Positions 35,690-64,000 of a stretch of 64,000 bases of DNA are shown one piece after another. The stretch comes from Octopus vulgaris (taxonomy: Eukaryota). The position numbers and the translations under genes are program-made. The notes beneath the pieces were generated by a model. It saw only the letters and a list, made by a program, of their open reading frames with translations. It had not been told where the DNA came from and did no database searches. The stretch covers positions 64,728,001-64,792,000 of the forward strand of contig OX597826.1 of NCBI GenBank assembly GCA_951406725.2. Reading direction: 5' to 3'. Each line of letters opens with the position of its first letter. Position 1 is the stretch's first letter.

Positions 35690-36274
35690 TATTCTTTTCT
35701 ACTCTAGGCACAAGACTCGAAATTTTTGGGGAGGGAGCCAGTTGGTTAGATCGACCCCAGTACGCAACTGGTACTTAATTTATCGACCCCGAAAGGATGA
35801 AAGGCAAAGTCGACCTCGGCGGAAATTGAACTCAGAGCGTAAAGACAGACGAAATACCTATTTCTTTACTACCCACAAGGGGTTAAAGACAGAGGGGGAA
35901 AACAAGGACAGACAAACGGATTAAGTCGATTACATCGATTCCAGTGCGTAACTGGTACTTAATTTATCGACCCCGAAAAGATGAAAGGCAAAGTCGACCT
36001 CGGCGGAAATTGAACTCGGAGCGTAAAGACAGACGAAATACCTATTTCTTTACTACCCACAAGGGGGTAAACACAGAGGGGACAAACAAGGACAGACAAA
36101 TGGATTAAGTCGATTACATCGATTCCAGTGCGTAACTGGTACTTGATTTATCGACCCCGAAAGGATGAACGGCAAAGTCAACCTCGGCGGAATTTGAACT
36201 CAGTACGTAACGGCAGGCGAAATACGGCTACGCATTTTGCCCGGCGTGCTAACGTTTCTGCCAGCTCGCCGCCT
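35690..36274 (-). mobile_element. SINE family C tandem trimer
   Basis: About 184-bp period; junctions GAAATACCTATTTC at 35851 and 36035. Confidence 0.9.
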
Positions 36275-57976: not shown

Positions 57977-58052
<76 letters not shown>

Positions 58053-58978
58053 TTGAATGTTTCCCCGTCAGGATGTGTCCACACACAGCTCCCGCCAAGG
58101 ACAAATTTTGCTTCAATTACGTTTTTTTAACGTTTTGCGTCGGTCTTCTGTCGTGATAGAATAGAGTCTCCGCCCATTCCGGGGTAGAAAGAAAGGTTCA
58201 TTTTGACAGTATTTTACCAGCTTAACAGTATTTTCTTTTCTTTTTTTTTTTTTTTTTTTTGTGAGGGGAAAGCGTCCATTTGTATTTATATTCCTTATCA
58301 ACATAGTGACGTCAGAGGTGGCAGCCGGAAGTACTTGTCACGATGGTAGTGGGTGTCTAGGCGACGAAAATAACAACGCCCCAGCAATTCCTGTTTTGAA
58401 AAAAAAGCAGATTTATGTTGAAATAAAATAAAAACACAGGCTACATAGCAGGTGAATAAACAGAATTGCAAACACGTTACAAAAATGAAATAGCGGGGAA
58501 AAAGTTTTCATTGAAAATTTTACATGGTTATATGATTAGGTTCGCTTTGCAACTACATGGTTTCAAGTTCAGCTCCACTGTGCGGCACCATGGGCAACCG
58601 TTTTCCAGTAGAACCCCAGCCTGGCCAATGCCTTGTAGGTAAATTTGGTTGACAGAAACTGTGCGCAATCCCATCGTATATATCTGTGTGTGTATATGTG
58701 TGTATGCGCATGTATGTACGTATATATATACACACATACATACATATGTAATATGTGTGTGTGTTTGTGTGTTTGTGTGTATGTGTGTGTGTGTGTGTGT
58801 GTGCATGTGTACGTGCGTGTGTGTACTTGTGAGGGTAGATTTGGAGTAACAAACAGGATAAATAGCACTCAATACAGAGCGTAAGTTTAATGTTTATTAT
58901 TTTTAATTGGCTAGAAGTTACATAGATGATCAATGATCGAGTGGCTCGTGCTTGGCACTTGTCAAAGTTTGATAAATG

Positions 58979-59392
58979 ACTTACTCTTTTACTCTTTTAC
59001 TTGTTTCAATCATTTGACTGCGGCCATGCTGGAGCACCGCCTTTAGTCGAGCAAATCGACCCCGGGACTTATTCTTTGTAAGCCCAGTACTTATTCTATC
59101 GGTCTCTTTTTTGCCGAACAGCTAAGTAACGGAGACGTAAATACACCAGCATCGGTTGTCAAGCAATGCTAGTGGGACAAACACAGACACACAAACACAC
59201 ACATGCATATATATATATATACATATATACGACAGGCTTCTTTCAGTTTCTGTCTACCAAATCCACTCACAAGGCATTGGTCAGCCCGGGGCTATAGTAG
59301 AAGACACTTGCCCAAGATGCCACGCAGAGGGACTGAACCCGGAACCATGTGGTTGGTTAGCAAGCTACTTACCACACAGCCACTCCTGTGTC
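58979..59392 (-). mobile_element. SINE family A
   Basis: Full-length copy. Confidence 0.92.
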
Positions 59393-59429
59393 ACTTTTGT
59401 TATTTCCTAGCGATTAAAAATTATAGATA

Positions 59430-60296
59430 CGAAGGGGTACCGAAAGTAACCGGGAACTTCTCTGTGGGACAAACCCGTTGTAGTTCAGGCTTCCGCCGCT
59501 AGAAGACACTTCATGCGACCCACAGGTATCAGTCTGCTGACCATCGTCGTCAGGTGATGTCGTACTTCAATGTGGTGCGTCTTTATTTTGCAGTGCTTCT
59601 CCCCTACTCGTCGCTTTTGTGATGGCGAAAACGAAGTAACAATGTGCTTCCGTGAAATTTTGTTCTCTGCTGGGGAAAACGGCAGCCGAACAGGCCGCTA
59701 CCATGAGCAAAACACAAGTTTATGAGTGGTTTCCACGCTTTAGGAATGGTCACTTGTCGCGTGAAGACCAGTCTCGTTCAGGGCAACCGTCGACCTCCTG
59801 AACGAATGAAAACAACATGAAAATTCCTGAACAGATCTTGGAAGGCCGTCACCGAACAATTGACGAATTTGATGATATGTCCTGGAACTCCTGCCATCAA
59901 ATTTTGGGCGAGGAATTGCGAATGGAAAGAGTTACACCAAAATTTGTGCCTTGCTTACTCACGGAAGATCAAAGCATGCCGCGAATGCATGTCCGAACTG
60001 AAAAAAAAAACAGTTGGAAGTTGATTCTGACGCTTTTTTCGAAGGTCATCACTGGTGATGAAAGCTGGTGCAATGGAATTTGCAGATGTGGAAGAGGTGA
60101 AGAAAAGAACAACAGAGGCGTTAAACGGAATCACTTCGCAAGAGTTCAAGCACTGCTTCGAATAGTAGAAAACGCGGCTTGACCGATGCATTGCTTCAAA
60201 TGAAGAATACTTTGAAGGCGATAAAGGTGTAAACATGTAAAACTAAGTGAATAAAATAATACTGCAAAATTCCGGTTTCTTTCGGGTACCCCCTCA
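59430..60296 (+). mobile_element. Internally deleted mariner transposon
   Basis: TIRs CGAAGGGGTACCGAAAGTAACCGG / CCGGTTTCTTTCGGGTACCCCCTCA with TA flanks; MSKTQVYEWF, KFVPCLLTEDQ, KVITGDESWC, RCIASNEEYFEGD. Confidence 0.88.
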
Positions 60297-60589
60297 TATA
60301 CATACGCGCGCGCGTATGTGTATGACTGTTTCGTGTTATTGCGTGGAATTTTAATAATAGTTCCAAGGTGCCTAATATGAGTATAGTACGCACACAATCA
60401 CACACACAGACACAGCATTGCCTCCCCTTTAAGCAATCTCAAAACACGGATACATACAAGCACCCCAAAAGTGTGCACTTCGCCTACTTCTTCCTTTCTT
60501 AGCTCCTCCATACAGAACCGCATTCCCACTTGACCTCTAATCAATCGTCAGTTTTTCCCTTCTCAACCACATTTCTTTTGTCACACTCC

Positions 60590-60745
60590 TTTTCTATTCG
60601 TCTATGATTTCTTTCTGATGAAGGACTAATATCCAAAACGTTAAGATTATTTTCCTTCCTTTTCAAGCGTTAAGCTTATACATTAATTGTTAAAACCTGT
60701 CCGCCCCGGTGATGTCTTTTGTCTTTTGTTCATTATCTTCACTCC
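60590..60745 (+). mobile_element. Penelope-like terminal fragment with inactivated hammerhead
   Basis: UCUUU-CUGAUGA-A-GGA-CUAAUA-UCC-AAAACGU-U-AAGA (G12A); downstream text resembles 44050-44140 minus strand. Confidence 0.55.
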
Positions 60746-60759
60746 ATACATACATACAT

Positions 60760-60790
<31 letters not shown>

Positions 60791-60803
60791 TACATACATA
60801 CAT

Positions 60804-60850
<47 letters not shown>

Positions 60851-60988
60851 TACATACATACATACATACATACATACATACATACATACATACATACATA
60901 CATACATACATACATACATACATACATACATACATACATACATACATACATACATACATACATACATACATACATACATACATACAAA

Positions 60989-61195
60989 GGCGGCGAGCTG
61001 CCAGAAACGTCAGCACGCCGGGCGAAATGCGTAGCCGTATTTCGTCTGTCGTTACATTCCAAGTTCAAATTCCGCCGAGGTCAACTTTGCCTTTCGGGGT
61101 CGATAAATTAAGTACCAGTTACGCACTGGGGTCGATATAATTGACTTAATCCCTTTGTCTGCCCTTGTTTAGCCCCTTGTGGGTAGTAAAGAAAT
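60989..61195 (+). mobile_element. SINE family C
   Basis: Full head and core. Confidence 0.9.
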
Positions 61196-61199
61196 ATGC

Positions 61200-61230
<31 letters not shown>

Positions 61231-61635
61231 CATACATACATACATACATACATGCATGCATGCATGCATGGTTTTCAACTATTAAATTCCACTCATAAAC
61301 TATTAATGTCTTTAGACAAGTTACTCAACAGTCAGACCGAAACCGGGACCACTTGATTCTCAAGTAAACTTCTTATCCACCTTTGCTATGCCTCAAGTTA
61401 ATTTTTTTTCTCCTACTTCTTAACTGTTATCTAATCTTTCTTCTTTACTCTTATGGCCTTCAGAATTTTCAGCAATTAGCTTTTATCCTTTTAGAAATTC
61501 TTGCACAGCGATGACTGACAATTAAGATTAATTTACTGTAATTTGGCATACGAAATACAAATCAAGCATTTCCTATTTAAAGTTAATCAAACGTTACACA
61601 TCAAACTAAATATCATGGAATTTATTTTCTGTGCA

Positions 61636-61741
<106 letters not shown>

Positions 61742-61869
61742 GATTATGCGTCTGTGAATGAGGGAAGCGCACCAGATACACACTCAAGTAAACACATATG
61801 CAAAGCATATATTTAAGCGTGTAATTCTAAAAGTGTAGAGTGCATGTACATATATGTATGTATATGCCG

Positions 61870-61906
<37 letters not shown>

Positions 61907-62115
61907 TGATAAATAGACGGATCGACCGACAGGCAAATAAATAGATGGACAGAATACTGGTGCCAACTGTCTTTTTAAATCCCCAGCCGAAATCCTTCCA
62001 CTGAGAAAGAACACCAAGAATATAGTTTATATTCCTTCAGAAGAAATTATTATTCCGGAATTAAGCCTTGATTGGACAACTAACCCCGTTTTTGAGTTGT
62101 TTTTTTTTAAATACG

Positions 62116-62202
<87 letters not shown>

Positions 62203-62229
62203 ACACACAGCTACTAACACGCGATACAT

Positions 62230-62336
62230 ATGTGCATAAACATATATATTTATGTAGATATATATACATATAATATACTTACGTGTACATTTATATGTAT
62301 GTATATATATATGTGTGTGTGTATACAAATTTATAT

Positions 62337-62389
<53 letters not shown>

Positions 62390-62520
62390 TATAAATGTGT
62401 ATACACACACACACATATATATATATATATACATACATATAAATGTACACGTAAATATATTATATGTATATATATGTGTGTATATATAAATATATATATG
62501 TATGTATATATGTGTGTATA

Positions 62521-62596
<76 letters not shown>

Positions 62597-62750
62597 CATA
62601 TATGTATGTATATATATATGTATATATATACACACATATATACATACATATATATATTTATATATACACACACACATATATATATACATATATATGTGTG
62701 TATGTATGTATATATGAGTGTATTTAGATATGCATACATATATATATAAA
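62230..62750. repeat. Complex (TA)/(TG)/(CA) microsatellite with internal inverted symmetry
   Basis: Direct reading. Confidence 0.85.
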
Positions 62751-63025
62751 GAGAGAGAAAGAGAGAGATACGTACATATGTATGTATAGCCGCTCACGCA
62801 TACACTTGCATAAGCACAGCAATTAAAAACCTAGTCTTCGCTCATGTCCCATGAGAATCGCGGACAATTTAGCAGCTACTTAGCCACCAACAGAGAGCCT
62901 ACGCCAATTAGCATCATACCAAATTCTTCCTAGATTTCTTCTGACTTAGACCAACCCCAGCAATTTACTGTAACGATTAAGATCTCTAACTATGATTGAA
63001 ACAAGTAAAAGAATTGAATAGATGA

Positions 63026-63059
<34 letters not shown>

Positions 63060-63082
63060 ATGTATGTATATGTATCTATATG

Positions 63083-63150
<68 letters not shown>

Positions 63151-63153
<3 letters not shown>

Positions 63154-63555
63154 CGAGACAAAACCACTATTTTAAAATCAAACAAGGAAAGACTTAATCA
63201 ATACGTAAAATTTTAATATAAATTAAATAAACCGCCACTACAATTGTTTCCTGTCTTCTACTGACATTCTTCAGGTGGATTTTCGATCTTCTAATCAGTA
63301 TCAAATTTGATACTGATTAGAAGATCGAAAATCCACCTGAAGAATGTCAGTAGAAGACAGGAAACAATTGTAGTGGCGGTTTATTTAATTTATATTAAAA
63401 TTTTACGTATTGATTAAGTCTTTCCTTGTTTGATTTTAAAATAGTGGTTTTGTCTCGAATTATATTATATAATATTTTACTATAAAATTGGATTTAACCC
63501 TAAATCTGATTTTCCCTGTAATTTTGGATTCATTCCCTAATATTTATTATTATTA
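63151..63555 (+). mobile_element. Perfect 310-bp spacerless palindrome plus about 95-bp unpaired tail, embedded in (TA)n
   Basis: 63151-63305 is the exact reverse complement of 63306-63460 (checked block by block); centre TCAAA|TTTGA. Confidence 0.95.
63333..63376 (+). ncRNA. Minimal type-I hammerhead ribozyme (mirror copy on - strand 63235-63278)
   Basis: CCAC-CUGAAGA-A-UGUC-AGUAGAA-GACA-G-GAAA-CAAUUG-U-A-GUGG: stem I CCAC/GUGG, palindromic ACAAUUGU stem III, GUA cleavage after 63372. Confidence 0.75.
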
Positions 63556-63578
63556 TATATATATATATATATAATATA

Positions 63579-63881
63579 ATTCGAGACAAAACCACTATTT
63601 TACAAAACAAACAAGGAAAGACTTAATCAATACATAAAAATTTGTAATATAAAGAAATAAACCGCCACTACAATCGTTTCATGTCTTCAATGACATCCGT
63701 CAGGTGGATTTTCGATCTCCTAATCTGTTTTAATTTATGTATTGATTAAGTCTTTCCTTGTTTGTTTTGCAAAATAGTGGTTTTGTCTCGAATTATATTA
63801 TATAATATTTTACTATAAAATTGGATTTAATCCTAAATCTGATTTTTCCCTGTAAATTTGGATTTATTCCCTAATATCTAT

Positions 63882-63888
<7 letters not shown>
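63579..63888 (+). mobile_element. Second, diverged copy of the palindromic element with a central deletion
   Basis: Same arm start ATTCGAGACAAAACC and same tail; only the - strand hammerhead remains (63665-63707: CCAC-CUGACGG-AUGUC-AUUGAA-GACAU-GAAACGAUUGU-A-GUGG). Confidence 0.9.
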
Positions 63889-63965
<77 letters not shown>

Positions 63966-64000
63966 ATATATATATATAATATATATAATATATATATATA

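Follow-up and report, generated by a model that had tools for sequence, protein, structure and literature searches.

The window analysed here, a stretch of 64,000 nt from Octopus vulgaris (assembly GCA_951406725.2, contig OX597826.1, positions 64,728,001 to 64,792,000 of the forward strand), contains near its right end a palindromic insertion with a hammerhead ribozyme motif, followed by a sister copy, both related to Penelope-like elements (PLEs). PLEs are the sister group of the telomerase reverse transcriptase (RT); little is known of how they transpose. The palindromes are very probably head-to-head pairs of short copies of a spliced PLE leader, each pair likely made as two complementary DNAs (cDNAs) from one sense RNA. 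The class of element is ordinary; its form, mass head-to-head retrocopies of a spliced leader, is apparently undescribed. The openly accessible literature searched on spliced or head-to-head PLE copies and on truncation at the cleavage site describes no such pattern; subscription papers and supplements may mention intronless copies. The first-pass annotation of the window had proposed a recent, non-coding, (TA)n-targeted, hammerhead-bearing insertion of Penelope-like type, and all of these attributes hold.

Genomic copies and splice junction

An exact 34-mer from the palindrome has 668 matches in the 2.8-Gb genome (none for a control), and a DNA search of this genome gave 2311 first-look candidates, 40 of which were scored. 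Within the family, the outer end lies at one of two fixed positions, separated by about 80 nt and corresponding to presence or absence of a tail, whereas the inner ends vary; the 5' limit is the motif TCACTT. The long copies have the beginning of the arm about 1.5 kb after the end of an open reading frame (ORF), followed by GTATGT, and the remaining arm continues after a TTTTAG acceptor about 1.3 kb downstream, matching at 94-96% in all 12 donor loci examined. The intervening sequence, 1260-1326 nt long in 17 of 20 loci, has the features of a spliceosomal GT-AG intron in the 5' untranslated region, within the pseudo-long terminal repeat (pLTR).

Genome-wide, the 22-mer across the spliced junction occurs 226 times, the donor 22-mer 24 times; on the acceptor side, a hand count among the matches listed (100 of 398) gave 79 spliced and 21 intron-retaining copies. 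The junction is exact in 87 of 93 arms and off by one base in the other six, and both arms of the window palindrome cross it with the intron exactly removed (63323/63324 and its mirror). Spliced and intron-retaining forms coexist in each of four hammerhead variants, including that of the window (29/19, 15/4, 14/5, and 10/1, from loci not randomly drawn). For a second subfamily, the junction was predicted and then found 36 times, and a further family (family C) is spliced likewise at its own junction. As judged by these junctions, splicing followed by retrotransposition is recurrent and concerns three (sub)families. Because the arms are exactly devoid of a GT-AG intron of the sense strand, the template would have been sense RNA, of whose spliced form the arms are likely copies.

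The arrangement is similar to that of Penelope in Drosophila virilis (PMC2377424, PMC4209133), for which the accessible text likewise describes an intron in the 5' untranslated region that begins some tens of bases after the start and ends just before hammerhead helix I, spliced as well as unspliced RNA, and inverted terminal repeats. However, Penelope keeps its 75-bp intron on transposition, whereas the octopus intron of about 1.3 kb is precisely lost in most short copies.

Parent element

The first-pass annotation had suggested looking for an ORF with RT and GIY-YIG endonuclease (EN) parts beside the genomic matches, and an ORF with an RT part and a putative EN part was found. An older relative adjoining locus L018 has a tail-like stretch that runs into a decayed RT frame, and a search with this relative retrieved the long copies. 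In 4 of 20 loci, a stretch that matches the arm at 88% is directly followed by an unbroken frame of 838-852 codons; L126, L128, L130, and L131 carry unbroken ORFs. The same long-copy layout exists in the window's own family (family A), where the arm is matched at 94-96%; the family A ORF is P0001, and the three ORFs read in this family are frameshifted. Long copies begin with exon 1 and continue with the intron, the hammerhead, and the tail, from which about 52 nt separate the start of the ORF; from the ORF start to the next hammerhead the distance is about 5.4 kb.

A structural model of the L128 ORF (predicted local distance difference test score 78) has TERTs as its top Foldseek matches (E 3e-9), in accordance with a telomerase-like RT. 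Alignment reveals a YRDD motif in the RT and, by eye and against known motifs, conservation of VVY...YIG plus the R, E, and N positions in the putative C-terminal EN region. Homologues of the parent protein fall into the precomputed family PF26215 and are mostly without names. A point against the assignment is that Pfam and PDB sequence searches with the parent protein gave nothing useful and no EN domain match. On the layout and these protein features, the parent is very probably an autonomous Hydra-type PLE in the same genome, with the palindrome as its by-product.

With the Hydra clade of C-terminal, endonuclease-positive PLEs, as characterized in the accessible text of Craig et al. 2021 (PMC8557442), the octopus family shares the DKT motif, a CxCx5C linker, lack of CCHH, CxxC and CxH in the EN, (TA)n targets, a hammerhead, an inverted 5'-truncated copy, and a tail at one end only. 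A pLTR in partial tandem, a feature of endonuclease-positive PLEs in general, is present as well. Despite this similarity, there are some differences: Hydra-clade elements are generally under 3 kb (a tendency rather than a strict criterion) and possess RWK and a tail of 30-40 nt, whereas the octopus repeat unit measures about 5.4 kb and the octopus family has KWK (most homologues: RWK or close variants), a tail of about 80 nt, and an Asn-rich insert. The accessible text of that publication says nothing of spliced leaders being retrotransposed in large numbers.

The Asn-rich insert is of low complexity and variable length, is situated between RT and EN (L126, L128, and P0001 residues about 490-600), is missing from most homologues, and is akin to inserts reported in rotifer Penelope elements. 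Further open frames of 150-190 codons, rich in His, Thr, and Pro, occur 3' of the main ORF (L126:4810-5373; similar in L125, L128, L130, and L131) and are probably non-coding.

Pairing of the arms

Pairing was assessed in 76 insertions, those to which the first 100 listed matches of the 34-mer belong, chosen irrespective of the tail. Two arms are present in 49 of them, and 47 of these combine one tailed with one tail-less arm, while one has two tail-less arms and one is unclassed (p 2e-13). Splice state is uniform within pairs, with 14 spliced, 2 intron-retaining, and no mixed pairs in this sample, and 22 spliced-spliced, 3 retained-retained, and no mixed pairs among the acceptor matches listed (p 4e-5 to 3e-3). 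Subfamily variants are common to both arms in 82 cases and unshared in 14.

For the Poseidon element PAc of Anolis, the accessible text of Frangieh et al. 2024 (PMC11167929) reports that in vitro both target strands are cut and extended, that targets are AT-rich, that two internal start sites of reverse transcription bound the tail, and that uncleaved RNA is a substrate. These results, together with the pairing rules of the octopus arms, make one RNA giving two cDNAs, each with its own target strand and start site, the simplest joint reading. The accessible text draws no connection between the two sites and the paired arms of an insertion, whereas the octopus genomic copies exhibit this pattern. 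The accessible parts of two further publications (PMC13282606, PMC12910113) have no bearing on the mechanism.

In detail, the element protein would cleave a (TA)n site on both strands, each of which would prime one cDNA on the same sense RNA, reverse transcription starting at two internal RNA sites that correspond to the two ends of the tail. A transcript beginning with exon 1 would give only cDNAs of about 180 and about 255 nt, the 3' ends of which would be joined head to head. Three template forms would be used: spliced RNA, with 5' ends at TCACTT; intron-retaining RNA, giving the long copies, the only ones able to carry the ORF; and ribozyme-cut RNA, with both arms ending at or just past the cut. 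The palindromes themselves would probably be dead-end products. The chances are evenly divided for a wider reading, according to which the genome would be a fossil record of the whole of PLE integration: a dimeric RT-endonuclease would read one sense RNA twice from the tail ends, and splicing and in vivo cleavage would decide the product, with full elements from intron-retaining RNA and short palindromes from spliced or cut RNA.

Some counts do not sit easily with two cDNAs per insertion: 27 of the 76 insertions are without a partner arm, the one-tail rule has exceptions (no tail in L057 and L168/L169, two in L065), and private differences between arms outnumber shared ones (29 vs 10).

The same parent and the same spliced sense RNA could also give rise to palindromes by fold-back, i.e., one cDNA copying itself, with the second strand stopping at an internal AT-rich site to leave a tail-less arm. 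Fold-back would account for the agreement of paired arms in splice state and variants (including the 10 shared private changes) and for the one-tail rule, and the arm centres are at most 5 nt apart in 23 of 47 pairs. However, it predicts that the tailed arm always extends furthest 5', whereas in these 47 pairs the tailed arm reaches further in 14, the tail-less arm in 10, and both equally far in 23; moreover, one and the same recurrent centre junction has the tail on one side in L058 and L063 and on the other in L056 and L075. Later deletions at the palindrome centres could rescue this model, which we consider unlikely.

Still less probable is an intronless non-autonomous master (retrozyme or SINE-like, i.e., similar to short interspersed nuclear elements) of single origin, amplified in trans. 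High copy number, the fixed 5' end, and a hammerhead in each full arm would be expected from it, whereas the coexistence of spliced and retained forms in all four hammerhead variants and in two further families with junctions of their own would not, and no head-to-tail arrays were seen apart from one local triplication; we regard it as very unlikely. Animal non-LTR retrozymes (LTR: long terminal repeat), as presented in the accessible text of bioRxiv 10.64898/2026.07.22.740005, are likewise short, non-coding, derived from PLE pLTRs, and equipped with a type-I hammerhead; they form head-to-tail tandem arrays of hammerhead units, whereas the octopus copies are dispersed head-to-head pairs, apparently made afresh from each autonomous subfamily. 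The retrozyme interpretation of the first-pass annotation is thus replaced by that of cDNAs from the spliced leader of an autonomous PLE.

A self-primed antisense RNA template is the reading proposed for such palindromes in PMC3846280, the accessible text of which leaves an unspliced sense template open. It is the published explanation of the same geometry and compatible with the intron-retaining long copies, but is extremely unlikely here, since most junction-crossing arms are exactly without the sense GT-AG intron, which is impossible from an antisense transcript. A DNA transposon with long terminal inverted repeats, similar to miniature inverted-repeat transposable elements (MITEs), or an assembly artefact might produce a perfect palindrome within TA repeats, but is hardly credible in view of the variable inner truncation, the asymmetric tail, the spliced junction, the linkage to an RT ORF, and the arms that are unlike in many copies.

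Two unusual loci were observed among the pairs. At L168/L169 (G000:C6, about 107965000-107977000), long intron-retaining copies with ORF stand head to head, spanning about 11 kb, and both outer ends are tail-less. A single insertion at L345 (G000:C5, about 64451500-64452100) contains a unit of 107-109 nt three times head to tail, each with the hammerhead, the 5' end in spliced form, and a short piece in inverted orientation; this triplication is possibly the seed of a retrozyme-like array.

Hammerhead motif and 5' ends

Both arms of copy 1 contain the series CCAC-CUGAAGA-stem II-GAAA-C-AAUU-GUA-GUGG, with the cut predicted at 63372/63373, as described in the first-pass annotation; a corresponding Rfam match is lacking. 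Rfam scans gave no hammerhead at 63312-63400 (E<=10) and none at 58000-64000 (E<=5), only microRNA-hairpin noise or nothing being returned, and an initial strict hammerhead descriptor had zero matches in the window. The minimum-energy fold is not a hammerhead (-6.4 vs -3.6 kcal/mol for the constrained fold), and the closing pair of stem II is mismatched in the two commonest hammerhead variants. All this speaks against an active ribozyme. In dimer folding, stems I and II formed and the intermolecular stem III did not.

Given the missing Rfam score and the unfavourable energy, the ribozyme case therefore rests on the conservation of core and stems across families and on the test of end points. 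Across 169 copies, mostly young, the core elements are CUGAAGA in 154, GAAAC in 167, and GUA in 152. A type-I core (CUGANGA/GAAA/NUH) with three stems is found across families, and between families A and C the core is kept while the length of stem II differs.

Concerning the sister copy, the stem II pairing AUGUC/GACAU noted earlier exists there, whereas copy 1 has 4 bp (UGUC/GACA) with an A.G closing mismatch. It cannot serve as a sign of selection: the stem II of the sister is by itself insufficient because the core of this copy is mutated (CUGACGG, A9 to G). The sister possesses a hammerhead in its inverted arm only; the other arm begins downstream of the ribozyme. The suggestion that transcripts of either strand could cleave themselves is not supported either, as transcription of head-to-head arms from either side reaches the antisense arm first. 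In the energy model, the transcript of the window palindrome folds into a hairpin of -252 kcal/mol, in which the ribozyme would be trapped; cleavage in a transcript of the window copy is therefore unlikely, and double-stranded RNA from it is possible.

Among 74 family C arms, 5' ends fall 12 times at -60 to -1, 29 times at 0 to +11, and 15 times at +12 to +40 of the predicted cut, four arms ending exactly there; some copies already recognised as containing the complete ribozyme were absent from this sample, so that the class ratios are biased, while positions inside -60 to +40 should hardly be affected. The stretch +12 to +40 is also AT-rich. In family A, 19 of 69 ends lie at +7 to +9, frequently with AT-rich filler, and 14 in the 52 nt before the cut, and both arms stop together in 13 pairs (8.1 expected from shuffling, p 0.004). 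Ends also pile up at TCACTT, a putative initiator-like start site.

Cleavage and the loss of a few bases on joining would fit families A and C, and hammerhead cutting in vivo appears, from these end points, somewhat more probable than its absence. In the accessible text on Anolis PAc (PMC11167929), no RNA ends at the ribozyme cut are reported, whereas octopus genomic copies have ends at or near it. On the other side stand, besides the bias of the family C sample, the position of the family A pile-up 7-9 nt beyond the cut at a boundary from GC to AT, with only 2 of the 69 ends close to the cut itself; partner arms that reach further upstream in two of the 15 pairs in which one end lies near the cut (this end being poorly defined in both); and the derivation of the TCACTT start site from the motif. 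The pile-up, above all that of family A, could also have arisen from stalling of the RT at the folded ribozyme or from AT-biased end joining.

Arms stopping just past the cut (L192, L197, L218, L225, L259) are often joined via reiterated filler of TTTA type, which is copied from the arm end and akin to template slippage.

Organization of the window

The palindrome is spacerless and perfect over 310 bp (63151-63460, arms of 155 nt each), as stated in the first-pass annotation; a second repeat listing gives arms of 160 nt with 99% identity. The (TA)n flanks on both sides and the diverged sister in tandem (63574-63888, mean column identity of 84% to copy 1) are likewise present (Table 1). The non-mirrored tail, given as 95 nt, is instead the family tail of about 80 nt, situated at about 63476-63555.

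Table 1. Features of the palindromic insertion, its sister copy, and the flanking sequence (positions in the window)
Feature	Position	Strand	Remarks
(TA)n target microsatellite, left	63063..63150	none	sequence, repeat listing
Copy 1, inverted tail-less arm, spliced leader	63151..63305	-	junction 63288/63287
Mirrored hammerhead in copy 1 inverted arm	predicted cut 63239/63238	-	
3' part of exon 1 of PLE transcript	63306..63323	+	GT donor next in long copies
Exon 2 to internal (tail-less) end point	63324..63475	+	AG acceptor precedes in long copies; 96% identity to long copy L174
Type-I hammerhead motif	63333..63376	+	sequence, family table; without Rfam match
Hammerhead stem I	63333-63336/63373-63376	+	
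Hammerhead core	63337-63343	+	
Hammerhead stem II	63345-63348/63356-63359	+	
Hammerhead GAAA	63361-63364	+	followed by palindromic stem III
PLE tail, about 80 nt	63476..63555	+	one arm only
(TA)n spacer between copies 1 and 2	63556..63573	none	
Copy 2, inverted, tail-less, spliced arm	63574..63733	-	sister subfamily
Copy 2 hammerhead	63707-63665	-	core change A9G
Copy 2, tailed arm	63734..63888	+	5'-truncated downstream of hammerhead
(TA)n target microsatellite, right	63889..64000	none	continues beyond window

Copies of different age and subfamily adjoin in or near one (TA)n run in the window (63151-63888) and at L018, L020, L023, and L024, which suggests repeated insertion at already used sites. 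Elsewhere in the window, a 184-nt unit is present in 2.6 tandem copies (35746-36225), with similar sequence in L020; it resembles what we take to be a common SINE-type repeat.

An RT ORF beside the hammerhead arm at L029 was considered as the parent and rejected: 19 of 19 other copies examined continue into an EN region of their own and have a different 3' end, and as judged from this comparison L029 is a chimera of a hammerhead arm with a second PLE family. No similarity was found between the L128 protein and the N-terminal RT piece of the second family. This unrelated family (L029:1-1488; L033-L052) has its own 3' end and 1041 first-look candidates, and the Cys linker is presumably Neptune-like; one of its copies, L040, has a hammerhead-like motif of minimal size, with U3-A8 in the core and 7 bp in stem I.

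Implications

The sequence evidence bears on three points: the template strand behind head-to-head palindromes, for which antisense RNA is proposed in the accessible text of PMC3846280; the retention of introns in PLEs (PMC8557442, PMC2377424, as far as accessible); and hammerhead cutting in vivo, for which no corresponding RNA ends are reported in the accessible text of PMC11167929. The family is young, includes unbroken ORFs, has left products that can be counted by the hundred, and allows exact predictions for the in vitro assay already available. Palindromes of this kind may be misfiled as MITEs, and they could feed double-stranded RNA into silencing. If true, the reading of the copies as an integration record would account, for PLEs in general, for the head-to-head inversions, the tail on one side, and the seeming retention of introns, and the end points would constitute the first genomic evidence that PLE hammerheads cut in vivo.
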